From the NCBI GenBank assembly GCA_905250005.1, contig CAJNOH010001581.1, positions 1 to 35,797 of the forward strand: a DNA stretch of 35,797 nucleotides, read 5' to 3'. Origin of the DNA: Rotaria sordida (taxonomy: Eukaryota). This document shows positions 6,740 through 35,003 of the stretch, piece after piece. The position numbers and the translations under genes were made by a program. Every line of letters starts with the position of its first letter. The first letter of the stretch is position 1. Below the pieces are notes generated by a model that did not search any database, was not told where the DNA came from, and worked only from the letters and a program-made list of their open reading frames with translations.

Positions 6740-7095
6740 TTTTATTGTGTTCGATATCGAAGTCAGCAATGATATCATCAACATATCAATACCAAATCTT
6801 GAGTGGCTTTTTCGAAAAACGTTGAAGTTTCTCCTTCAGTTTTAATATAACAATATTCACAAGAATTGGCGCAAGGGAACTTCTCATGGCAACACCATTC
6901 ACTTGTTTATACTTTTTGTCAAGAAATCTAAATCGAAGGTTTCATACAGCCAAATTCATTAAGTCTTACATTTGACTTCTATACTATGTCATATCTGATG
7001 TAGTATTCTGTTTATAGATCATTTAAAGAACATATTCAATTGTTTCAGTCACTGATATATTTGTAAACAAGGATTCCACATCAGATGAAACCATA
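6740..7095 (-). mobile_element. Decayed retroelement reverse-transcriptase fragment with in-frame stops
   Basis: The minus-strand translation contains the RT motifs 'SSDVESLFTNISVTETIEYVL' (RC of about 7027-7090), 'SSLAPILVNIVILKLKEK' (RC of about 6853-6890) and 'YVDDIIADFD' (YxDD catalytic box, RC of about 6755-6790). The motifs are in the correct N-to-C order but are interrupted by stop codons. The family cannot be determined by eye; a Penelope-like/Athena or non-LTR origin is a guess. Confidence 0.5.
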
Positions 7096-9984
7096 GTCTG
7101 AGTCATGAAAGATCTAAACGCTCGGATTCTCGTCACAAAATGATACGAATCTTTTATGAATGAGGTTGGTTGTTGAGTTCGATGAGAGACAAGGAATGAT
7201 GCTATATATTTGGATAATTCGTTGATAATTGTATGCTTTGATAGAAGAAATTGTGAGCCTTTAGTTGTTCACACATGACAGACAGCGATGCGAATATGGA
7301 ACGGAGTCGCCAAAAAAAAAGTGACTAATACATTATTTTATATAATTGCCTAAGGACCTTGTTCATTTCTATTTCTTTCTTTTCCATTGAAGACGAACTA
7401 GGAAAGAAGCGACATTGCTTCCCGTTAAGAATTGCTCTTCCTATGCTCTCATAATCAATCTTATTGAAAACAATTATACAGTTTCCCGTGCTGCTTTATA
7501 AATTACAGTAGGCGCGGTGCATTTAAGAGTTCATCGGGTACGTTCAGTATCTTCTTCTTGCAAACGCTTTTCATCAATTGCTGAGACGCAGAAAAAATGT
7601 GTCGATAGAGAGTACAAAAGACGGATAGGTGATACGTGGGTAGTAGTTGGAACGAATTTCGTTCAACGTCAGTTTGAAAATCTACGAAATTGATTATTCT
7701 TTGTTTCATGGAAAAATCCTAGACATGTGCAAGAAGTCTTTCCTCAACAGAAGATAAGATGTATGAGGATACATTATGAGCAAGTTTGTAAATATTGGAC
7801 GTCTAGTTCTCACTAGCAGGTCCATGAGCAAGTCTCTCGAATTTAATCTCATCTATCATCGAAGCACGATTATGTTCTGTCATAGTCTTTTATCAAAGAA
7901 CAAGATTGGTCGAGTAGAAATCAACCGTAGGCACTTTCTTTTCCAACCAGTCTATACACGATTTTAGTTCTTGATTGAGGCAAATAGTCACCTTGTAACG
8001 TACTTCATATTCGTGTTGTAGACATTGACGTTTGAAAAGCAGAGCTTGCTCAGCCAAAATATAAGATTGTTTCAACGCATGAAGGTGAATAATAGATTGA
8101 ACTAGACTATACATTAACCAAGTGTAGGGATTCTCAAAGCCTAATTAATAGGAACTGAGCAGTCTTCAGCTGTCAGACGATATTGTCCTTTTCTTAGCGT
8201 ATACCGAAATGATTCATACAACTGCAGACTTGTGTTCAAAAACCTAAATGCGAAAGCAATACTTTCAGTAGATAGAGCTCGCGCAACTCATTCAAAGAAC
8301 ATAAAAAAATGTTTGAACCACAGAGGTCTCCCACACTCATTTTTCGACTAGTGAGAAGATTGACACAAATCGTGCATAAATGTCAAACACGAGATCCTCA
8401 TATTCTAACATAAGAAAATTGAACGGCGCATTTTCTCGTTATGATAAGAGTACGTGCGTAAAAACATAGTTGTTTGAGGTTGTTTGTGGAATGGCAAGAC
8501 AATGGACATGGAAACCACGCTGATTCAACTACTTTTATGTTGGTCGAATAAACCACATAAGCTTTAGTAGGCTATTGGTAGATGGTTGGATCTTTTTTAT
8601 GAGTCCACAATTATATCAAGTATTTTATTTTCTGAGAGAAAGCGTCGTTCACTAAAATATTTCTGTCTGCTGTCTGCTGAAGGCTATCAGAGAGTAGCTC
8701 TACTCCAGCTATGGAATAAACTGTATTTTTTAAAAGAAGCTTGACTAAAAAGTAATCGTAGATAGATAATGCAAATTTGATGCTGGTATACATATTTTTG
8801 TTTTCATTTTTATAATTATTCAAAAAAAACCTTGGCCACGGACAATCATAATCTGTCAATCTGGCTCATGGGTTAGTTTTTCTTTGAAATCAATAATTTT
8901 TTTGAATAAGGTCCTTTACGTGTAATAAAATTCCTCAGAAGATATTAGTTATTGTGAAATACAAACTTGACTTCTACGTTTTTTTTTCTTTTGTATTTTT
9001 AATGAAGAAAAAATTCATCAAAGTGGCGTTTTAGAGAATCTGAATTCCGTTTTCCTTCTTTCTGAGCAGCAGAGCTATGTTAATGAAATTATGAACATGA
9101 ATCTTTTTCTATCTTTTTGTTCGTTGATAGTAATCAGAAAGTATCCAATTGATAATTAGAGGAAAATAAGCAATCTTTTGCGAAAAAGCATCAGAGCATA
9201 CTAAGAACTTTGAAGACAAATGAAGACATGGCAAATGGCGACCATCCATCTTCAGAGTAATAGAATATTGAGGGCCACTTTATGCTTGAACTTACTTCAA
9301 TCGCCAGAATCACGATACCAGCGTATTCATTCGCAAGCAGCGTTAAGAATCAGTGTGGATTCTGGGCTTAGATGTGACTGTGTAGTTCCTTTAATAAATG
9401 ACCAGCTCTAGTAGACTTTAAAAAGATATCAATGGCTTACTCAAAGGTGTTTTTCTAGCAATATAGATTACATAGTTCATATTTTCTTACGATTTTCATA
9501 ATTTCAGATGGTTTTCAGGATATTAAATAAAGATTTCGATTGCAACGAATATCATTGGTTGAATGATTTTTGTGTTTATTTTTCAAAGAAAGGATTTCGT
9601 TTCCAGTGAATTGTCGAAACTCCCCGCATGGCATTCAATAAGATTGTAATTTTCGAGCCATTGTCAACATTGATATTGAGGCGACAAAGAGGTACTTATC
9701 CAGAATCGGTTAGCTGATAAAGTGGTCTGAATTACACTCTGCCATACTTTATTTAACCGATCGAAATTCGACAGAATGATCTAACGAGGGAACCTCTTCA
9801 AGTACTAAAAAGCATTTGACCTCAAATTTTGTCCACAGATAGGAGATGTATATACTAGAAAAAGTCTAAAAGGATATCGACCCAAGTAGCGATTTGGCTG
9901 AGATAGCAGCGTTTTACTATAATTTTTCTGTAGAACCTCACGTTGCTAGTAAAATTAAAGTTTTGAATTTTGATCTGAAACTTT

Positions 9985-10955: not shown

Positions 10956-11354
10956 CCCACACCCTTTATGAATAGTTATTGCACAATAAGCGTACTATTT
11001 AGATGAAATCCATTTTGTGTTTCTTTTTCACTTTCATTCTGCTTTTTTTTTCGAATGTCGCAGTAGAATAAAAACACGACAAGTGAAGTCAACAACAACG
11101 GCATTCTCCGATAGTTTGAAAAAAAATTTGGGTTTTTTTAAATTAAACATTTACAATGACACATGAACATTGGTATAGTATTTCTTTATTTTTTTTTATT
11201 TAATATCTACTGATTTTCTAGTGCTCAATTCTATTCTGATTGGCAAACAACGGTTCATTGTTCATTTGAAAATGTGTTTACTCCAACGATTGCTCATATA
11301 GTCGGTGCTAATCTTCAAAATATATTGGGTATTAAACACTTTAGACCAGATGCA

Positions 11355-14300
11355 ATGGCTAGAGATGCCTCATCACCATGTATATTTACATGCCAAAGAC
11401 GAGAAGCAAACGATATTCGTGATAAACTTATCCAGGTGACGACTGAATCGTATTCACATATTTGGTTTTCAATGCAAACAGAACCATTTCATTTTATTTA
11501 CAATAGGCGTTCAATGGTGGATGATGATTCAATGAAAGTCAAACAATATCCTGTCTTTTTCTATTTTGGTTCTATGTATACTTATAGTACTTTTCATATT
11601 CATAGTAAACCACACCCAGTTATTTACGATATTGACATAACCAAATGGAATCAGGCACCAGAAACAATTCGTATCATGTCTAAAGATAAAACGAGACAAA
11701 TCTTTATACCAGTGAAATGGATACAAAAAAAAGTGTTGGTCAATACAAATGGACGACCATGTGTGGTTTTAATGTTAAAATATTCTGTAAAAATGAAAAG
11801 AAAAGCAACAATCAATGGTAAATCAAAGTATGAAAGGTAAGGTAGATAGATCAATTGATAATACGACTGTTGTTTTCCAGACAGATGCTCTCGTGACACT
11901 TGTTCCTTGGCAACAGTTGTGGGTGTGGCTGTGGTAGACGTGGATGTGGGTGTCGGAGGTGCAGCGACTATAAATGTTCATCAGTTTTTTGCCCACTCAC
12001 ACACATATCCGTGCTGCAAAACTGAATGTCCGAGAAGTAGTTGTCACCGAGGAGCAAGTGTCACGGGAATATCTGTCATGGAATCGTTTTATATTATAGT
12101 TCCATGAAATCATACATCAGTAATCTTATATTTCATATCTCTTCTTTTAGAGTATGTCGAATAGATGAAGAAGGACTCGAAACAATCGTATCGAGAAGTT
12201 CTGATCTTCTTCTTTCGTTCAATGAAATTGACCATACATATGCTTTTCTGTCAGAGCTTACAAAAGAAACCGATAATTATCGCAATAAATTTAAAATCTA
12301 CTTTGTTTCACTTAAACAAGTTCAATGTGATAATAATAATAATAAACAACCTTTTAATTTGCCTCGATCAGCATCACATAAACAACATTATGCATTGAAA
12401 ATGCTTTATTCTATGGGTTATGTGTTTCAAGATAAATATTCAAAACAAATGCATGATCAATTTGTAGCATTTGATAAAGAATTATTCAATAATATGTGCT
12501 ATTATCTTAAAGAAAAACTCGAAGAAAATCATTGTTATATGTTAAATCGTATATTCGATGAATACAACACTTATCTAAAAGAGAAACGTAAAAATGAACA
12601 AGAATATTCTGTACAAAAACTTCCCTATTGTATTGGTTGTATTTCGTTGACACCATTACGAATTATCTATCATCGAATGGAATCATCAATTGAAAATCGA
12701 GCATTAAGAATGAGACAATTCGGTGGTGAAGATATGTTTTTATTGGTACATATTCGAGAAGAAGATAATCAAGCATTAAAAGATTTTGATTCATCAATTA
12801 AATGTCGACTTAAATCAAAAATGATGCAAGGAATTAAAGCTATGGATAGAATCTATCGTTTATTTGGTACATCAACTAGTCAATTAAAAGAAATGTCATT
12901 TTGGTTTGCAGCTATTGAAGATAAACCAATTGAAAAAGCTTGGGAAGAATTAGGAAATTTTTCGTCCATAAAAAATGTTGCCAATTATGTAGCACGGATT
13001 GGTCTTTATTTCTCAACATCTCATGCAACAGGAGTACGTGTATATTTTCTATTTTTGATAGAACAAACAAAAAAATCCAAACAATATTTTTTATTATCAT
13101 ATTTTAATAGATTTCATTTAAATATGAGAAAAACTTCTCACCCAACATGCAATATGTAGCAACAACTATTGATGATATTGAGACAAATGATAAAAAATAT
13201 TGTTTTACTGATGGCATCGGAAAAATGTCATGGGGTATTGCTGGTCTAGTTGCTCCAAAATTAAATATTAAATTGGAATCAAGAGATGATATACCGTCAG
13301 CTTATCAAGTTCGTATTGCAGGATGTAAAGGAATGCTCGTCATTGATCCTAAATCGAAAATGAATGATTATTATATAAAAGTTAGACCATCGATGGAAAA
13401 ATTTCAATCTGATAATTGGGAATTAGAAGTATGCAAATATAGTGGACCGTGTAAGGTTTCAAAAACTTAGTAGACAAATAAATATTATAACAATAGATTG
13501 TATTTGTTTTTATAGTTGAACTTAGATTCAATAATCAAGTGATCATGCTTTTATCGGATTTGCGTAATCCTGATGCAGTTTTTGAATCCTATCAAAATGC
13601 AAGTTTGACTAATTGTTTTGCACAAAATGAAAAGGAACAGCAACGAAAATTGAAGTTTGCATCAGCTAAGGAAGATTTATTAAAAAATAGAATTCCATTA
13701 CCGTTAAATGAAGCACGAAATATGTTTGGTGTTGCCGATGAAACTGGTACATTAGAATATAGTCAAGTATTTATTCAGTATAAAAATCTTGATCCAAACA
13801 TTGATAAAACATATATTGTTGTAACTGGTATGTTTGTTTTTTTTTAATTATTTTATAATTCTACAAAAAAATTACATCAATTATGTATGTCTATAGGTGA
13901 TGTATTAGTAGCGAAAATGCCGTGCTTACATCCTGGCGATTTTCGTCGGTTGACTGCTATCGATGTACCTCAATTGAGAAAATGTATACGTGATTGTATT
14001 GTATTTCCAACGAAAGGAAAACGACCTCATCCGAATGAAATGTCTGGATCTGATCTAGATGGAGATCAATATTGGGTGAGTCTTAATGAAACTAACTGAT
14101 GATTCACTATTTCAATTAAAATACTATAATAAGAAAGAAAAAACTATTTTATTTCGGATACTTTATAAAAGCAAAAATTATTATCAAGATTTTGACTAGC
14201 ATGATGTCTTAAACGAATGTTGTCTTATTTTTATGTTTGTACTTATAAGTTTTGTAGACAGATTAGTACAAGAAATAACAATGCTAGATATCTTCTTACT

Positions 14301-16483
14301 ACAGATCAACTCGAGTTTTCTTTTCAAACTTAAATTTGATCTTTAAAACAAAGCATACATGAAAGTACGGATGAATATAAGAAAATAATACATAATTTTT
14401 GTGATCTCATTTATTTACTATCTTTGATAAGATTGTGTAAAGCTTTTATTACAAAGAAAATTCAATTAGTACAATTGCAACCTTAGGTACTATGTTATTG
14501 AAAATGTTAAATGTCTTTGTATTAGGTATATTGGGGAAAACAATTGGAAATCAGAGAAATGGATGAACCATTATCATATGAATCTTTACCAAAGAAAGTA
14601 GTACCTAAAATAACATATGAAGATATAATCGATCATATCGTTGAGTCATTTGGAGCTGGAAGTCAAGGTATTATTTGTGATGTACATTTAGCAATTGCTG
14701 ATTCTCGTCCAAAACGTACCAGATCAGATGAATGCCGATATTTAGCTGAATTATTTGCACGTGCTGTTGATGCACCAAAAACAGGTGAAATTATTGAATT
14801 AGATAAAGTTTATAAATTAAGAGCAGAATTTTGTCGAGGATATCCAGAATTTATGAAAAAATACGATCAACCAATACGTCAATCGCAGAGTATTTTAAAT
14901 AAATTATTTTTAAATGCAAGAAGATACTTTTTTACGCATCATGAAACAGATCTTCAAATAGCATCATCAAAACCTATTTTACGATCCGATTCATCTACTC
15001 CTAAAGTCTGTGCACAACGAAAAACTGGAGCAAGCGTACAAGACGAAGAGTTTCAAGAATGGCTTATATCTCTTAACATTGATACATCAGACAATACAAT
15101 CAGTGAAGCTAAATCTATCTTAGCAAACACCAAAGGGAGAAAAAGCTCAATTAAAAGTCTTGATACTGCAAGCAGTATAGTTGAGGTGGACTCTTCGACA
15201 CCATCACTAGAATCATCAATCACAGGAAATAAAAAGAAAAGAAATATTCAATTGAAAAAAGAAGAAGCCGAAGACAATCAAACACTCTCAACAAAAGAAG
15301 AAAAACTTCCTGTCGAACCAAAACCATCTGGATCAGCTTCAACAAAAGATAAAACACCAAAACAAACTAAAGCAAAAGCAGAATCTATTAACACATCTGA
15401 TGAACCTTTTAAGTTAACCAATTCTGCTACGCCATCAGTTTCACTACAACTATCAGCAAGTGCTTCGTCGATTTCTCAGAATACTCTTAATCGAAATATT
15501 GTTTTCAATGGTATGACAGCAGTAACCAATCGGCTCAAATGGGTTCAAATAGGTAGTGATGTTTTTACAGTTGATCTGGATTCAAAAGGGAATAGTGAAA
15601 GCAATGCAATAGATAAAATAGTTAATCTTATGCTTGATCTAAGAAAAACAGCATCTTTTTCGACTGACACTAAATTAACACTTACAATATTATGGGGTGA
15701 ACTTAACATTAGAACTACACAAACAATGAATGATACAAAACCAAAGAATATAAAAGAACTTGTCCAAGTAATCAAAGATAATAATGATATTGAAATTTTA
15801 TTTAGAGAATCTGATATCAAAAGTATTGTAAAAGAACATGTAAGTATCGACACTTATTTAGTATACAATAACAAAAAACCTTTTAATCTTAGGAACCATC
15901 TGGCAAATCAGCAGCAGTCTATGTCCTTATTTGTAGATGTTTGGTTATTACACCAAACGATATAGCACTCATATTTGATGATAAAAAAAAATTAAAGAAA
16001 ATTTCATTTGCTTCTCGAGAGTGGATTTGTGCTGTTCGAGGCGGTGAAGCTATTACGGATAGTTACTATGAAATTCGATGTACAACCAAAGAAATCGATT
16101 CAGAACATGAGTCATTCTCTAACTATTTGAAAATGTTGTTCAAAGATCTGAACTCACTTGATATTTTAACTGGTAAAAGTCCACAAATTTCAATTGCTAG
16201 CGAACAATTTATACCAGGAGTACAAATTATTTCTTTACAACGATTGGTTCGTTGTGATTATGTCCTTTTAAGTCAACGAAAGTTATATCAAGGTCAATTT
16301 AGTACACTGACAAATCTCGAGTGGGCTTTTTATCATGTTACACGTATTTCTACAGAAAAGATAAATGGTAAAATTTCAACACGAGATGTAATTGAATTTC
16401 AGGCAACACCAATTCAACTGGCAAAAAAATGTGAACAAGACTTGAAAAATTTATGTGATTTGGCAAAGAGATTTTTTGACTAA
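11355..16483 (+). CDS. Cellular RNA-dependent RNA polymerase (RDR/RdRP family) with a long C-terminal extension. Proposed exons: 11355(first ATG; frame open from 11271)-11836, 12151-13033, 13111-13450, 13516-13827, 13897-14075, 14526-15839, 15893-16483.
   Basis: The catalytic exon encodes 'VLVAKMPCLHPGDFRRLTAIDVPQL...GSDLDGDQYW|VYWG', which is the eukaryotic RdRP DxDGD motif. Upstream exons carry 'RIYRLFGTSTSQLKEMSFWFAA...NVANYVARIGLYFSTS', 'FTDGIGKMSWGIAGL...PSAYQVRIAGCKGMLVIDP' and 'FNNQVIMLLSDL'. The downstream exon has 'HLAIADSRP...CRYLAELFARAVDAPKTGEII'. All seven proposed junctions keep the reading frame and use GT..AG with introns of 53-450 bp, for example 13034-13110, 13451-13515, 13828-13896 and 15840-15892. 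The track ORFs 12041..13159, 13147..13470, 13539..13847, 13887..14099, 14544..15965 and 15941..16483 are pieces of this gene. The last roughly 500 aa (Ser/Thr/Lys-rich low complexity, then a globular-looking terminal exon) have no similarity I recognise. The 5' end is uncertain; an upstream exon is possible. Confidence 0.85.
11917..11960. repeat. Degenerate telomere-like G-tract (ttgtgggtgtggctgtggtagacgtggatgtgggtgtcgg) lying inside RdRP intron 1
   Basis: Read directly from the sequence. Confidence 0.6.
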
Positions 16484-17237
16484 ATTTTAATAATATAGTT
16501 TATGAACAAAATAACAGAATAAATCAAGACAATGAGAGTAACATTTTCAATGTCTTTAAAAGTCATCTTCGAGAATCACGAAAAAGAGAAGATAGGTATT
16601 GTTCTAGAAAGTTCGTTTTATGAATAATCGACAACTTATTATGTTTATAGTACAGTTTTGAGACGCAAAACATTTATAGAAATGAAACAATTTCTTATGT
16701 AATTGATTGATATTTAACGCGTACTCAACCATCGTATTTCTATGATTAGGATTAACAGTTTGAATTTAAAATACTAAAATTTTTAATTAATATAGGATAT
16801 CTGTTCGGCAAACTTCATGCAAATGGTAGACAATGTTGATTTTAAACTAACTGAATTGAAGATAAGAAAAGAGAGAATGATTATTAAAACGAATTATGTT
16901 TGTTTACTTTTAGTTTTTGTATCAGAAAAATCATTTTGACTTTTTTTCATTTAAACATGAACGATCAGGTTCAAATGTTAGTGATAATATATATTAGTGT
17001 CACATTGACATTTTTATTATTTCAATTGTAGAATTCATACAAAAAAAAGTTACTGATCGCTGTATAAGATTATTCATAAATCATTTGATAATCCAAAGAA
17101 ATCTGTAATACAAAAAAATCAATCAGTATTCTTATAGCTTCGATTAATGTTAATGATGTGGAGATAAATCGAAATGATCTTTTCAAATCATTTCATTATG
17201 AGATTTTGAATCTATCGCTAGTGTCTTAATCTAAATC

Positions 17238-19876: not shown

Positions 19877-22800
19877 ATGAAACAAGCTACTACCTCTACT
19901 TCATTATTATCACCATTCAATGGCAAAACGATTGTACTCGAACTTGGCCATGAAATAGGTTTCAAAGCTAAACAAGAATTGATCAACTATTTACGAGAAC
20001 AGCAAGCACATATTTCATATATTTTGACAGCTAGTGTATGTTCTCCTTTTATTCCATTAAACATGTGATTAAAGTTGACTTATTTAGACTGATTATGTTT
20101 TGGCTATGAATAATGTAGATAGCTACAAGATACGTCGTGCCAAACAGCTTGGCTTACCAATAGTCAATGTTGAATATGTATACAGATGTCGTTGTTTGCC
20201 ACCTGGTCAAACATCAATTGATATTAGTAAATTTATTATCAAGTCAGCTGAAGATCAAGAAAATTTTACAAAAACCGGCACTATTTCCATGGAAGGTATT
20301 AGTAGTTCTTTTAAAAATCATGTCAGACATCCTTGTTCATTAGAATGTCGAGTAAATGTGACTAAAATCAATAAATTCGATTTGACTAAAATCAAATTAT
20401 GGAATTCGGACGATGTCGATTTGCCTGGTTTCGATGAGTTGACACATTGTGAGATTGGCAAATGGGCCATTTTCAAAGTAGATTTGTATTAATTTCTAAC
20501 TATTGTTCTCTTATATTTCTACTGTTCATAATAGGAAACCAACGATAATTCAAATGTATTTTTTGTTCTTGAACTTCAAGTTATTCCAGAACAGTACTAC
20601 GATCGAACAACGAGTGATTATCGACTACGATTTCGATATGAAAAACAGACTATTATTGGTGAAGAACCACAACACGATAAAAAAATTTCGATACAATATG
20701 CATTCAGTGATGATCCAAACGAACAACAACAATTGTTTGCATCGTACTATTATCGAGTGGCTAAAATGTCACGTATAACACGAATTCGTGAGATGTTACC
20801 TAATAAATTAGGATCAAAACTATTGTTACGTGTAAGTAAATAACATTGACAAAGAGAAACTATTTTCCAAAAGAAGATCAATTATTTTTAGTCTTTATTT
20901 ACTCATCGTATCGATACACAGATACTTGATGAGAACGTATGTCAATTGATTGAATCGATTTGGTTAGAATCGATTGGTGATCTGAATAAAATGTTGAGCA
21001 TATCACCCGAATCGATCACTCTCAAAACGGTATACAAATTCATTTTGTTACATTCATATTAGTTTGTGCTCTAAACAACTAAATAGATCATTGAAGCCGA
21101 AGCTGCACTGCTTGAACTCAAATCAACCAACAATTCTGCTGCTGCACTTCGTTTCTATTCACTTATACCACATCGACAAGAATACAATATCGATCTCATC
21201 AAGAATCGTCGAGCGTTAACCGAAAAAATAGACTTATGTCAAGTATGTCTATTTCTTTTTATTTGTTTTGTTTGATCTTTTACCTGTTCAGATGCTTCGA
21301 GATATGCTTACTGTCAACGAACTGACCAATTGGAATGTTAAAGCACCAATCGAAGCTAAATATCGAGCATTGAAATGTTATATTGAAACAGTGACTAGTT
21401 CAACACCCGAATTTAAGAATATTGCTAACATCATTCAATCGTCGACAGATAGGTGAGAAAATTTAATATTCAATTTCATGATAATAGCTTATTTGTTTTT
21501 GTTCATTAGCGATGAACAAATTGTCATTCACAATGTATTCAGCGTGGCTAAACAGACAGATGCACTCAATTTTTGTACAACATTATCTCATCAACGACAA
21601 CTATTTCATGGATCGAAATATGTCAATTTTCTTGGGATTCTTTCACGGTAAAATATTCATTTAATCCTCTAGACAATATTATGTGTACATTTAGTGGTTT
21701 GGTCATGCCTAAAATGGTAGTAGAAGACTTAGGTGTTGTACGTACTGATATTGGTTGTCTCGGTTATGGGATTTACTTTTCTGATTCTGCTTCGACTTCT
21801 TTAAAGTATACAACAACAAGCATAGTACGACCAGGTCGTCGTTTGTTATGCATTTGTCAAGTAGCACTTGGCGAAACAGCTAACTATTATTCATTTTCAC
21901 CGACTCTCACCAAACCTCCGGATGGTTTTCATAGTACGCATGGAGTTAAACGAACAGAAGATAATCATTCAATGTTTACTGTAAGTAGTTAGTGTTATTG
22001 TGACCTATTAAAGTATATTTTCAAAAATTTTGGTGAATTTCGTAGAACCAGCGAACCAAATTTTTTCGTCAATACCAGTGACTAAGCATTCATTTATGTC
22101 AGAGTTCATTGGTAGAGCTTGGAAAATCCCTTGACTATTGAATTCATAATTAATAGTGCAATCATAAATTTGATATTTATCGAAATAGGATAATGAATAT
22201 GCGATCTATCAACTCGATCAACAACGTTTACTCTACATTGTGGAAGTTTCATGGGCACCGAAAGATAATCTCAATATCGAATTAGAACGATTACCAATTA
22301 TTCATCATCAACAGCATGCATTACAATTGAGTGAACATGGTAATGATGATTCTTTTTATTAGATTAGAATTCAATTATCAGATTATCTGTTACATTCTAG
22401 TCGAAGTTCCCATGACAATCGATAATGAAATCATTGAAATAGCTGAACAAGACTATGGTTTAATATGTCCATCATCAGGAAAACTTGTACCACTTAAATC
22501 ATTTCATATTCGTGCTCAAATTGTTGATGTTACAGTTGAAGTAATTATATCTATGTTTCCATTGAAGTCAAATACTAATTCATCATATTTCTATTTAATG
22601 AAAAAGGTTGTTCTCTATCAAGTCTATCACAATATGAGTTCGAAACCGATTGAAGCTAAATATGTATTTCCTCTTGATGAAAATTCAACTGTATGTGGTT
22701 TTGAAGCACATATCAACAATAGAATTATCAAAGGTGTCGTTAAAGAAAAAGAACAAGCCAAACGAGAGTATCGAGAAGCAATTCAAAAGGGTCATGGCGC

Positions 22801-25800
22801 CTATTTAATGCATCAAGAAGAAGCTCAAGTGTTCAGCGTTGCTGTTGGTAATTTGCCAGCGAACAATGAAGTTATCATCAAAATAACCTATGTTGCCGAA
22901 TTAGAAATCGAAAATGGCGATATTATTTTTCGTCTTCCAGCCAAAATGACTTCATGGCAATCGAAAAAAGCGATCGAAAACAAAGATCAAACAATTCTAC
23001 GATCTATTGGTATTGTCGATGAAAAAGTTGAATTCAGTTTCAAAGCATCGATTCGAATGCCATACAAAATAGTGAAATTATTTTCGCCAACACATCGTCT
23101 TCGTCGAAAGTTAACTGATTGTATAGCCATGATTGAACTTGTCGATAATATCTTACTTGATCAAGATTTTATTCTTTCGATCGCACTCAACAGTCCTAAT
23201 TTACCTCGAACATCAAATGAAACATTGTCATTGGATGACAACAGTGGAACAACTGACACATCGAACAATCATAATTCTCAAGCATGTATGCTTACCTTTT
23301 ATCCACGATTCGAAACATTGACGAATTCGAACGAACAAATTGAAATTATTTTCATTATTGATGTATCAAATTCAATGGATGGTAGTCATGTACAACAAGC
23401 TAAACAGTTAACTCATTTGTTTCTTACTAATTTGAAAGTTGCCGATGAGAATACATATTTTAATGTAATCACTTTTGGATCAGGTAATAATGTTATATTT
23501 AACAGCGTTATTTTTACTATTCAAATTGGAACTATTTAGATAATGATGAATGTTTTCCTATATCAACACCAATCACAAAAGAAAATCTTGATAAAGCCAA
23601 ACATTTTGTTTTGGTTAGTAGTTTTTCTTCAATCTTCATTTTGTATATAAAAGTATTCTAGCATTCTCTTGTCCATCGTGGTAATACGGATCTATTTGCT
23701 GTTCTTCATCGTTATTCATTATTACCATCGTCATTATCATCGAAATTCGGTCGTCAATTCATTCTTCTATCCGATGGACATATTCACGATCTGAATTCGA
23801 TTCTTGCTCTACTCAAATATCGACCGACTATGCGTCGTGATCGTTTATTTACATGTTCAGTTGGTAATATTGCAAACAAACATGGTTTGAAACAGTTAGC
23901 TAATGGAGCAAATGGAGGTGGTCTAACAACGATATTCGATTCGAACTATCGATCAAAATGGAAAACAAAAGTATTGAACATTCTTGAACAGATCCGACAA
24001 CCTTGTGTTACAAGTATATCTATCGATTGGCATGGTCATTTGGATGAAGAACAAAAATTCAATATGCAAGCACCGAAAATGATTCGATCTTTGTTCAATG
24101 GAATGCGACTTACTGTTTATCGATTCATAGAAAATTGTCACAAGGCAACATTGACGGCTACTATTGATGAGCAAGAATTTGTTACGACTGTATTTAGTAG
24201 TACGATGACAACGACCAGAGGGCGTATTCTACACTGTCTAACTACTCGAGCGATCATCGATGATTATGACAACGGACTATTGGATGTAGATGAGAGCGAA
24301 AACGAATTGATCAAAGCTCAATATCGACGAGATCTCATCGATCTCAGCATCAAATATTCTGTTGTCAGTGCATACACTAGTTTTGTTGCCATCGAAGAAC
24401 GTGATATCAAAACGGATATAAAAACTCTTCAACCAGGTTAGTAAAAAAAGTTGAGATTTTATTGACTAAAGTCATGGGTTGATTAGTAACAGAATAGCAC
24501 AAGAGTAAAAATTTATCTACATCACTATTGAGACATGTACTTTCTGTTATAGGTGTTCGTCTGCCTGAAGTTATGCTGAAGCATGATGTGGACTTACTAC
24601 CATACATGGGATGGGATGGTGATATATCAAACTTGACTTTAATCAAACATAAATTGTTCGATGCGCGTATTTCACTCGAATGTGCATCGATTCAGGGCAA
24701 AAAAGAAACAGTTGCTGATGTTGAAAAACTTTGTCAAAAAATTTCCTATCGAGCAGGTGGTGATGCAAAATTTGGTATGATGATGACTATCATACGCACA
24801 TATCGTTATTCATTGAATGAATACGATAATGCAGATGAACTCGAAGACAAAATGCGAAAGGGTATGTTAATTGATCTAGGATCAAAATTTAAATATATCG
24901 AATTTGAAAAATGAATAGATATAATGACCGAAATGATTAGTGCAACGACAGAAGAACGGCAAGCATTACAACAAAAATGTCTGGCGAACAATTTGATAAT
25001 CACAAATAACGAATTGTAAGTGAAAGAAAGGAAAGAAACATTCAAAAAAAAATGTTGGTGTATTCGTTCTCTTACAGTGAATCAATGGCTAAATACGATG
25101 GTAAGAAGGGAATTTGATCATTCTACTTTGGAAACCTCAATCGAGAGAAAGAAAGTGATTCTATAATTTAGACCAAAATGAAAAAATAAGAATATGCTAT
25201 TCATCATCAAAGCAATGGACAAAAACGAATCTCATGATTATTTTGGTTTCTGTATATCATAGCATCTGAGCAATTCGATTAAGACAGGATAGAGTAAAAA
25301 GTACTTTTTCTATTCAACTTTTAATCGTAGATTTATGTGTCCTCTTTCTATAACGTAGTATAATTTCAACAGAAGGGATCCAAGAAAAATCTTAATAATT
25401 GCATAACATGTCCACACTACGTATATTGATCTTCGACAAACTTACGAGGAAAGGTCACGAACTGATAAATCGCTTTTTAAATTTTAGTCATGCCAATTTG
25501 TAGAGCTTGTTGAGTTATTAACTAATATGATAAACATTCAGACCAACAAATGGGGCTGTAGAGTAAATTTCTAATAATCTAAGTTTCTATTAACCTATCC
25601 ATACCCCTATAGAGCTCCTAAGCACTCCTATAGGACTACTATACGGTATGGACAGATTAATTGAAATTTAGATTATCAGAAATTTACTCTACAGCTGCAT
25701 TGTTGGTTCGAATGACTATTATATCAGTTAATAACTCAACAGGCTCTACAAATTGGCATGACTAAAATTTAAAAAGCGATTTATCAGTTCGTGGCCTTCC

Positions 25801-33941: not shown

Positions 33942-35003
33942 ATGAGTACTTCTTTTTGTTTATTTAAATCAGTGTCAACACAACTCTATCAGAAATCGAT
34001 CAATTGGGACAATCGTGCCCAAGGTCAATATACAGATGCTATGGCCAAAGCTGATTTTGGTTCGGTCAGCGGATGGAAAAACGATCGTGCATCGATCTCA
34101 GACGGGAAATTACGTATCACTTTACGAAAAAATGCATTGGGTGGGGAAAGCGGTATCATATCCAACACAAGAATCCCAGATGGTTCTGCATATGAGTTGG
34201 ATTTTGACGTTCGGTTTCATAGTCAATTCGACTGGAGTCGTGGTGGAAAAGTTGGTTTCGGTTTTGGCATCGGAAATCGAAATACAGGATGCAATCCCCC
34301 AAAAGATGGAGCGGGTGGAACTCTACGTTTAATGTGGTACAATGATAATAAACGAGTCTATTTCATTCCATATGTTTATTATTATGGTATGCCAGGGCAG
34401 TGTGGAGACAAGTTTGGCAAATCGTATCCATCAACTGGTATGAGTTATTATTCTTAAGGAAAGTTATATTCAGAATCACCGCTAGTTTGAAGTAGTCACT
34501 GTTCGAGATTACTTCTCCATTCGACATGCTTTTGAGCACGGATTATCCCCATAGAGTATCGAAACACAACCGAAAAGTCTTTAAAATTTCTTACCAGATC
34601 ATTTGATGATTCAGTAAAAAATGTCATCAATGATTGCGAAAGGGTGAATATAAAAACGTACTCTTTCTTAACTTTAGGTAGTATTGAAAAAGGCAAGTTG
34701 TACAGAGTTCATATGTATGTCAAATCAAACACTGGTAATAACGCCAATGGACACGTCCAAATAAAAATCAACGGAGAAGTGCTAATTGATCAGAGCATCC
34801 GGTGGACAACCAATGACAGTAAACGACTTATTAACAACTTGTCTTTTCACACGTGAGTTTTATTTCAGAATACTTTTGTTATAAGTACTTTATTTGACTT
34901 TTTTCAAAATAGATTTCGTGGAGGAAGCGAAGATCATTGGAAATCCAACGTTGATAGCATGATTTACTATGATAATTTGTCTGTCAGACAAATTAGTAAA
35001 TGA
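33942..35003 (+). CDS. Small secreted-looking beta-jelly-roll (concanavalin-like) protein, possibly polysaccharide-lyase-like. Exons 33942(or 33973)-34437, 34677-34852, 34913-35003. An alternative 5' mini-exon 33782-33803 ('MKLFTTT') would splice to 33973.
   Basis: Track ORF 33942..34457 ('...WDNRAQGQYTDAMAKADFGSVSGWKNDRASISDGKLRITLRKN...GFGFGIGNRNTGCNPPKDGAGGTLRLMWYNDNKRVYF...') continues through GT..AG introns 34438-34676 and 34853-34912. The downstream exons read 'G SIEKGKLYRVHMYVKSNTGNNANGHVQIKINGEVLIDQSIRWTTNDSKRLINNLSFHT|FRGGSEDHWKSNVDSMIYYDNLSVRQISK*'. Phases match: 1 then 1, and 2 then 2. The composition is Gly/Asn/Trp-rich. The family assignment is a guess. Confidence 0.6.

Follow-up and report, generated by a model that had tools for sequence, protein, structure and literature searches.

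The direct products of RNA-dependent RNA polymerases (RdRPs), such as the nematode 22G RNAs, carry 5'-triphosphate (5'-ppp) ends (PMC6396948). In C. elegans, PIR-1 dephosphorylates the ppp-RNA that RdRPs make and associates with the RdRP-containing ERI complex (bioRxiv 10.1101/2020.08.03.235143). Kinetoplastids bind the 5'-triphosphate of guide RNAs with a heterodimer, RESC1/RESC2 (GRBC1/2; PDB 8cdp, 8fn4, and 8fn6), in which RESC2 accommodates the guide RNA 5'-ppp in a tunnel despite the absence of two of its three metal ligands (PMC10201420). The RESC domain comprises approximately 320 to 350 residues, arranged as strand β1, a β2-β3 hairpin, and helices around an imperfect barrel, and belongs to no recognizable sequence family; tunnel RNA triphosphatases are described as being restricted, as a rule, to viruses, fungi, and protozoa (PMC10201420). 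Here we describe an RdRP gene of the bdelloid rotifer Rotaria sordida whose C-terminal tail contains a domain that is firmly predicted to have the triphosphate-tunnel fold of the Cet1-like RNA triphosphatases and of RESC1/RESC2. The gene is on the forward strand of contig CAJNOH010001581.1 (assembly GCA_905250005.1), of which positions 1 to 35,797 were analyzed; this 35,797-nucleotide (nt) stretch is referred to as the window, and coordinates are positions within it. The triphosphate-tunnel fold is a β-barrel whose interior binds triphosphate.

Bdelloids are ancient asexuals. The passages on RdRPs in Nowell et al. (2021, eLife, PMC7943196) report that they carry approximately 39 RdRP copies, the largest repertoire reported for any animal, that most of these copies fall into divergent RDR I and RDR II clades, and that the functions of the divergent clades are unknown. 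In those passages, the Pfam RdRP domain is the sole criterion by which RdRPs are identified, and their number given, and a C-terminal domain is not described. The gene in the window belongs to this published expansion. Thus, although a first-pass annotation made by a model from the DNA letters was correct that this is an animal cellular RdRP, the presence of such a gene in such an animal was already known.

The same annotation recognized an RDR-family core with a DLDGD motif, which the analysis confirmed. The protein matched the Pfam RdRP family (PF05183; E = 2.6e-130, 436 bits versus a cut-off of 23.8). The motif is encoded at nt 14052 to 14066, and the catalytic loop GSDLDGDQYW is intact and aligned with the equivalent loop of RDR2 of the plant A. 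thaliana. DLDGD was also retained at each of six further loci that were examined: three orthologous ones, two paralogous ones with a tail, and the tail-less Adineta vaga locus L018. The only solved relatives of the core in a PDB search were RDR2 (E = 7e-69), another RDR, and the fungal polymerase QDE-1 of N. crassa, whose core aligns and has the DxDGD loop in common. The protein was 95% identical to R. sordida protein model P0006, 80% identical to the protein of Rotaria sp. Silwood1, 60% to that of Adineta steineri, and 58% to that of Didymodactylos carnosus, and the nearest nonbdelloid matches, from a mite and a fungus, were 28 to 32% identical. The gene is a eukaryotic cellular RdRP with intact catalytic residues, and its product is predicted to be active in RNA-templated RNA synthesis.

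Residues are numbered either in an initial 1366-residue model that starts at nt 11355 or in the full protein of approximately 1416 residues that starts at nt 11156. The core ends at approximately nt 14915 to 14950, in agreement with the end near nt 14950 proposed earlier: the Pfam match extends to residue 860 and the RDR2 alignment to residue 862 of the 1366-residue model, equivalent to residue 912 of 1416. In RDR2, which has 1133 residues, the alignment stops at residue 963. The C-terminal part that follows in plant RDRs has no sequence counterpart in the rotifer protein, which instead has a linker and the predicted tunnel domain. The possibility that the tail is a displaced "head" or C-terminal region of plant or fungal RDRs was rejected, as it had no sequence support and the predicted fold matches tunnel proteins.

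The exon that encodes the end of the core (nt 14526 to 15839) remains open beyond it and runs on into sequence rich in Ser, Thr, and Lys, as the first-pass annotation had stated. Its estimate of a C-terminal extension of roughly 500 residues also agreed with the approximately 490 residues measured, all within the same gene. The annotation divided the extension into 300 residues of low-complexity sequence and a globular segment of 195 residues. This partition was incorrect: the extension is a linker of approximately 170 residues followed by a single domain of approximately 320 residues that begins in exon 7 and is split by the last intron. The last exon encodes the C-terminal two-thirds of this larger domain. 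These zones were drawn from an alignment that compared the window with its orthologues from three metagenome lineages (L001, L004, and L005) and in which the conserved end of the core reached approximately residue 930 of 1416. The linker (nt 14970 to 15479) is rich in Ser, Lys, and Thr, with 64% S/T/K/E/P/N/Q and 19% hydrophobic residues; its identity among orthologues was 26 to 39%, with many insertions and deletions, and it is probably disordered. A well-conserved block then extends from NRNIVFNGMTAVTNRLKW (approximately nt 15468, in exon 7) across the last intron to the C terminus, from approximately residue 1097 to residue 1416.

One short element of the linker was conserved. The motif QDEEFQEWLISL (nt 15039 to 15074; consensus [QK]D.EF..W[LF]) was retained in all orthologues and in the divergent paralogues P0022 and P0035. 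P0011 of A. vaga, in which no tail was detected, has it as well (DENFKKWLAEH). Possibly the element is a short helix, or a docking motif, of the polymerase and not of the tail.

The tail had been described as unplaceable in any family. By sequence this description held: scanning the full-length protein, its tail, and 13 members of the family against Pfam returned only RdRP, with other matches at the level of noise (E > 0.03), and no common known domain was found in Pfam or PDB sequence searches. The predicted fold, however, could be placed. AlphaFold2 (AF2) with a 23-row alignment that included divergent paralogues gave a model with a mean predicted local distance difference test score (pLDDT) of 88.4 and a predicted template modeling score of 0.88, and all five models scored 84.7 to 88.4. 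The domain became interpretable only after the divergent paralogues joined the structure prediction alignment. The model is one compact unit of approximately 15 strands and 6 helices. Its order in the part encoded by exon 7 is a first strand (NRNIVF, residues 1104 to 1109), a β-hairpin, a helix, a hairpin, a helix, a strand, and a helix, and exon 8 encodes most of the predicted barrel strands. Foldseek searches of the PDB with this model matched RESC1-RESC2 (E = 4e-10) and the RNA triphosphatases Cet1 and Pct1 (E = 3e-5), all with a Foldseek probability of 1.00, and searches of the viral predicted structures in BFVD matched mRNA capping enzymes and mRNA 5'-phosphatases of giant viruses. RESC1/2 were the top matches by two methods, and three structure library searches agreed on the fold. 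Therefore the domain, for which the first-pass annotation had suggested structure prediction, has structural relatives, and its description there as a novel accessory domain applies to its sequence family and domain architecture and not to its fold.

The closest predicted structural relatives are similar to the rotifer domain in several respects. Like the RESC domain, the rotifer domain has approximately 320 residues (RESC2 is resolved from residue 133 to 483), and the order of its elements (strand, hairpin, helix, hairpin, helix) fits. Structural alignments to RESC1/2 had 9 to 12% identity, and no sequence homology to RESC1/2 was found in protein profile or PDB searches. RESC1/2 differ in being stand-alone mitochondrial proteins that function in RNA editing as an obligate heterodimer, whereas the rotifer domain is fused to an animal RdRP, and for it ppp-RNA binding and dimerization are predicted at most.

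Several observations indicate that the tail is part of the polymerase gene. The end of the core, the linker, and the first approximately 120 residues of the domain are encoded in one uninterrupted exon (nt 14526 to 15839; open reading frame [ORF] nt 14544 to 15965). The last intron is a 53- to 73-nt, phase 0, GT-AG intron across loci. Its junction falls at an identical codon in four sequences that were read directly (the window, L001, L004, and L005), tblastn placed the same last exon boundary in L012, L013, and L014, and the divergent paralogous loci L009 and L019 are split at the same position of the profile. Retaining the last intron would shift the reading frame. GenBank/UniProt protein models of R. 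sordida, Rotaria sp. Silwood1, A. steineri, and D. carnosus include the tail. The pairwise ratio of nonsynonymous to synonymous substitution rates (dN/dS) was 0.31 to 0.52 in the domain versus 0.47 to 0.93 in the linker, but this is weak evidence because synonymous substitutions were saturated. The alternative that the tail is a separate gene was rejected on the basis of the continuity of the exon and the location of "stand-alone" tail matches: P0031 of Rotaria sp. Silwood1 and P0024 of D. carnosus each follow immediately after an RdRP gene model and are therefore split annotations of one gene.

The domain has a narrow distribution. A profile of it, searched against 1.84 billion representative proteins, yielded 20 matches, all of which look like RdRP tails, either exon-sized tail pieces or an RdRP C terminus plus the tail, and every named match was from a bdelloid (Rotaria or Didymodactylos). 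Word-indexed protein searches found few relatives of the tail (5 and 7 matches), and a scan of metagenome loci with a closer alignment added just two new orthologue lineages. Divergent paralogues were 21 to 30% identical to the domain in the window and retained the polymerase DLDGD motif. Thus, the domain appears from these comparisons to be an ancient accessory, restricted to the bdelloid lineage and to some of its RdRPs, that other RdRP paralogues lost or never gained.

Three of the metagenome loci (L001 to L003) are rotifer-like animal DNA in contigs of 100 to 200 kb from freshwater and other sources. They carry intron-split HSP70, ionotropic glutamate receptors, and an orthologous RdRP with the tail. 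Genes on these contigs were called prokaryote style as exon-sized fragments, and as a result the tail appears in databases as orphan "proteins" of 150 to 430 residues.

Cet1 has two acidic motifs and a set of basic residues with which the rotifer domain can be compared. Motif A (ExExK) supplies metal ligands E305 and E307, motif C supplies E492, E494, and E496, and R393, K409, K456, and R458 bind the γ-phosphate. The residues of the rotifer domain that line the predicted tunnel were assigned from strand periodicity on the alignment, in the 1416-residue numbering. Polar-face residues common to clades that are 21 to 30% identical are K/R1235, D1249, R1269, D1276, E1280, R1282, S1334, K/R/Q1336, E1388, and H/Q1390. 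The conserved charged residues encoded by exon 8 are R1235, D1249, R1269, D1276, E1280, R1282, and E1388, the pattern that would be expected of a charged tunnel lining. Basic residues at 1235 (K/R), 1269 (R), 1282 (R), and 1336 (K/R/Q) are conserved on polar strand faces whose orientation toward the tunnel was likewise presumed from periodicity. The strand Y-V-L-I-C-R in the window (residues 1230 to 1235) aligns with Y-E-F-D-C-K in divergent paralogues and with Y-E-L-E-C-R in P0033, and hydrolytic activity is plausible for the paralogues with the ExDxK pattern, such as P0031 of Rotaria sp. Silwood1.

These signatures differ from those of the Cet1/Pct1-type RNA 5'-triphosphatases of fungi, protozoa, and giant viruses (PDB 1d8h, 4pn0, 2qy2, and 6l7v), which have ExExK and three Glu residues in the last strand; the protein in the window has neither. 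The context also differs, as no guanylyltransferase partner is evident in the rotifer and the setting is RNA interference (RNAi) rather than capping. On the basis of the model, the domain is best filed in the tunnel fold superfamily and not as a canonical Cet1-type enzyme.

The fusion of a catalytically intact polymerase to a predicted tunnel domain suggests that the enzyme has a built-in module with which to handle the triphosphate ends of the RNAs that it makes. It is probable, although far from certain, that the tethered tunnel domain captures the 5'-ppp end of the product of the polymerase or of an uncapped template and then holds and protects that end or hydrolyzes it. The protein would function in three parts: the catalytically intact core, a flexible low-complexity linker of approximately 170 residues, and the tunnel domain of approximately 320 residues. 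De novo initiation by the RdRP would yield RNAs with 5'-ppp ends. Because RdRP products begin with 5'-ppp, the domain is likely to bind product 5' ends, and the tether may allow the tunnel to capture the 5'-triphosphate of the nascent product or that of an uncapped template. The captured end could then be held and protected for hand-off to Argonaute or be hydrolyzed to pp- or p-RNA. In cis, such a domain would correspond to C. elegans PIR-1, which acts in trans. PIR-1, a member of the DUSP11 family, is alike in proposed role only: it acts on ppp-RNAs from a cellular RdRP and associates with an RdRP complex, but it has a cysteine phosphatase fold and is a separate polypeptide that acts in trans. 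For the clade of the window, binding or noncanonical chemistry, as in RESC2, is favored because the acidic ExExK pattern is absent, whereas the Y-E-F-D-C-K paralogues may be active enzymes.

Several points weigh against triphosphate capture by a tunnel domain. The fold was predicted from an alignment that is shallow (23 rows) and includes many partial sequences, and AF2 with 6 close or partial sequences gave an unusable model (pLDDT 42). None of the 13 family members matched the mRNA triphosphatase family (mRNA_triPase; PF02940) or CYTH (PF01928) at E ≤ 1, and PDB sequence profile searches with alignments of the whole domain and of the divergent clade returned only chance matches (a kinase, PriL, and SOD; E = 0.2 to 2). 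Motif A, ExExK, is found nowhere in the domain of the window. In the last strand, TRDVIEFQ, a single Glu (E1388) is nearly invariant, with T/V and H/Q flanking it on the same face, compared with three Glu residues in Cet1. The tunnel-facing residues, and the choice of NRNIVF or YVLICR as the equivalent of Cet1 β1, were assigned from strand periodicity alone. Canonical metal-dependent hydrolysis by the protein in the window is doubtful because it lacks ExExK and has a single Glu in the last strand. The A. vaga paralogue P0011 (locus L018; CP075494.1, gene I4U23_027210), a 56%-identical RdRP that retains DLDGD and the linker motif, has no tail detectable with a profile hidden Markov model (E ≤ 1) within 5 kb downstream. 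Therefore the domain is dispensable for some RdRPs.

A more specific form of the capture proposal, which we advance only tentatively, is that the family forms a single-polypeptide polymerase and 5'-end-processing machine. The ExDxK paralogues would be true triphosphatases that turn ppp-siRNA precursors into RNAs with Argonaute-loadable ends. The others, including the clade of the window, would lack catalysis and act as 5'-ppp "readers," either retaining the nascent product or choosing templates that are uncapped. Other explanations for the tail were weighed against the same observations. It is rather unlikely that the fold is instead a scaffold only, a protein-protein interaction or dimerization module that recruits Argonaute, Dicer, or a helicase, or that dimerizes the RdRP, without binding triphosphate. 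Such a use would be comparable to Med18/Med20 or to the domain-swapped hairpin of RESC1-RESC2. However, R1269, D1276, E1280, R1282, and E1388 are conserved on polar faces of the barrel even at 21 to 30% identity, as a ligand tunnel predicts, the best structural matches are RNA end binders and not Mediator subunits, and the divergent clade keeps the ExDxK pattern.

An improbable alternative is that the domain is a CYTH-like enzyme that acts on a substrate other than RNA (nucleoside triphosphates [NTPs], tri- or polyphosphate, or thiamine triphosphate) or a cyclase, for example one that tunes local NTP or triphosphate (PPPi) levels for the polymerase. Least credible is that the tail is an artifact of annotation or assembly, or drifting nonfunctional sequence, with the protein ending soon after the core and the fold being spurious. 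The poor AF2 model from 6 sequences and the saturation that weakens dN/dS would both be consistent with an artifact. It is contradicted by the single exon that joins the core to the first half of the domain, by the AATAAA after the stop codon, and by the agreement of the three structure library searches. In addition, the frame and the position and phase of the intron are retained in Rotaria, Adineta, Didymodactylos, several metagenome lineages, and paralogues with only 21 to 30% identity. Capture of 5'-ppp ends by a tethered tunnel domain is thus the reading that we favor.

The full gene comprises eight exons on the plus strand with an intact reading frame. The model was built by reading nt 11200 to 16700 and enumerating GT/AG combinations that keep the frame open, and the N terminus was set from orthologous proteins. 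The initial model of 1366 residues started with the ATG at nt 11355, the start also given by the first-pass annotation, and consisted of nt 11355 to 11836 and the last six exons described below. This start required revision. Orthologous proteins begin approximately 50 residues upstream of that Met (MTHEHCAQFYSDWQTTVHCSFENVFTPTIAH...), and the window encodes exactly that sequence. Orthologues from Rotaria and Adineta conserve these 50 additional residues, which GenBank model P0039 also includes. The true start codon is in a 17-nt exon 1 (nt 11156 to 11172; ATGACACATGAACATTG followed by GT) that encodes MTHEH and the first two bases of a Cys codon and matches the N termini of P0006, P0007, P0009, and P0039. 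A 49-nt GT..AG intron 1 ends at nt 11221 (acceptor TTTTCTAG at nt 11214 to 11221). Exon 2 (nt 11222 to 11836; in-frame ORF from nt 11274, with orthologue tblastn matches) encodes an N-terminal region that matches no Pfam family, and the ATG at nt 11355 is an internal Met codon within it.

The core is encoded from approximately nt 12764 in exon 3 (nt 12151 to 13033), where the RDR2 (7eu0) alignment begins at residue 416 of 1416. It continues through exon 4 (nt 13111 to 13450; gene model, orthologue tblastn, and RDR2 alignment) and exon 5 (nt 13516 to 13827; gene model and orthologue tblastn). Exon 6 (nt 13897 to 14075) encodes the catalytic loop, identified both by reading the sequence and by Pfam. 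Exon 7 has three parts: the C-terminal end of the core (nt 14526 to 14969), defined by the ends of the Pfam match and RDR2 alignment; the linker, defined by composition and orthologue alignment; and the N-terminal approximately 125 residues of the predicted tunnel domain (nt 15468 to 15839; residues 1 to 124 of the AF2 model), conserved in orthologues and paralogues. The last intron (nt 15840 to 15892; 53 nt, GTAAGT..TTAG, phase 0), identified from its junctions and by tblastn, splits the domain. Exon 8 (nt 15893 to 16483; gene model, AF2 model, and alignment) encodes its C-terminal approximately 196 residues (EPSGKSAAVYVLICR...REWICAVRGGEAITDSYYEIRC...RFFD*) and the TAA stop codon, with an AATAAA polyadenylation signal at nt 16518 to 16523, 35 nt past the stop codon.

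This model is the same as GenBank CAF1232112.1 (UniProt A0A815U8Y0; R. sordida, 1413 residues, "RNA-dependent RNA polymerase") except for a 3-residue alternative donor. The exon 2 donor at nt 11836 retains "YER," which is dropped in P0039, the GenBank model of this contig, with its donor at nt 11827. Because the orthologues of Rotaria sp. Silwood1 and A. steineri have "YER," the donor at nt 11836 looks better supported. R. sordida model P0006 (1391 residues), an allele or haplotype, skips approximately 25 residues in the tunnel domain (YYEIR|YLNSLD) and lacks CTTKEIDSEHESFSNYLKMLFKD; this gap is probably a spurious annotated intron. The divergent loci L009 (nt 7095 to 7673) and L019 (nt 11953 to 12750) lack the 450-nt intron that follows DQYW in the window (nt 14076 to 14525), and in them the DLDGDQYW exon runs straight into VYWG or VYWD. 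The intron in the tail domain, in contrast, is present in these loci as well as in the window.

Downstream of the gene, nt 20100 to 25000 of the plus strand look like a vault poly(ADP-ribose) polymerase (PARP4-like) gene, with a PARP catalytic domain in the ORF at nt 21573 to 21992 (E = 1.4e-11) and VIT and VWA domains in the ORF at nt 22331 to 23539 (E = 3e-33 and 3e-6, respectively). An ORF of 171 residues at nt 33942 to 34457 of the plus strand had a weak, subthreshold match to polysaccharide lyase family 14 (E = 2e-4, 21.5 bits versus a cut-off of 27). Should the match be genuine, the ORF may represent a nonmetazoan, horizontally acquired gene of a kind common in bdelloids. In A. vaga, an RNase III (Dicer/Drosha-like) gene is just upstream of I4U23_027210 on the opposite strand.

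The gene, the bdelloid RdRP expansion, and the tunnel fold are already known. No paper linking an RdRP with a triphosphate tunnel metalloenzyme (TTM), CYTH protein, or RNA triphosphatase in rotifers or in RNAi was found in a search that left most of the subscription journal literature outside its scope. What is apparently new is the fusion of a predicted Cet1/RESC-like tunnel domain to a cellular RdRP and the presence, in an animal, of the Cet1/RESC branch of tunnel folds. If the prediction is correct, that branch is extended to an animal, a result that bears on the origin of the RdRP by ancient retention or by horizontal transfer.

The recognition, protection, or trimming of 5'-ppp ends decides which Argonaute can load RdRP products. 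A tethered tunnel module, if true, would be a new architectural solution to a step for which C. elegans needs the separate protein PIR-1. It would also provide a mechanistic basis for the expansion of RdRPs and Argonautes in bdelloids and for the biogenesis of secondary small RNAs without ping-pong.

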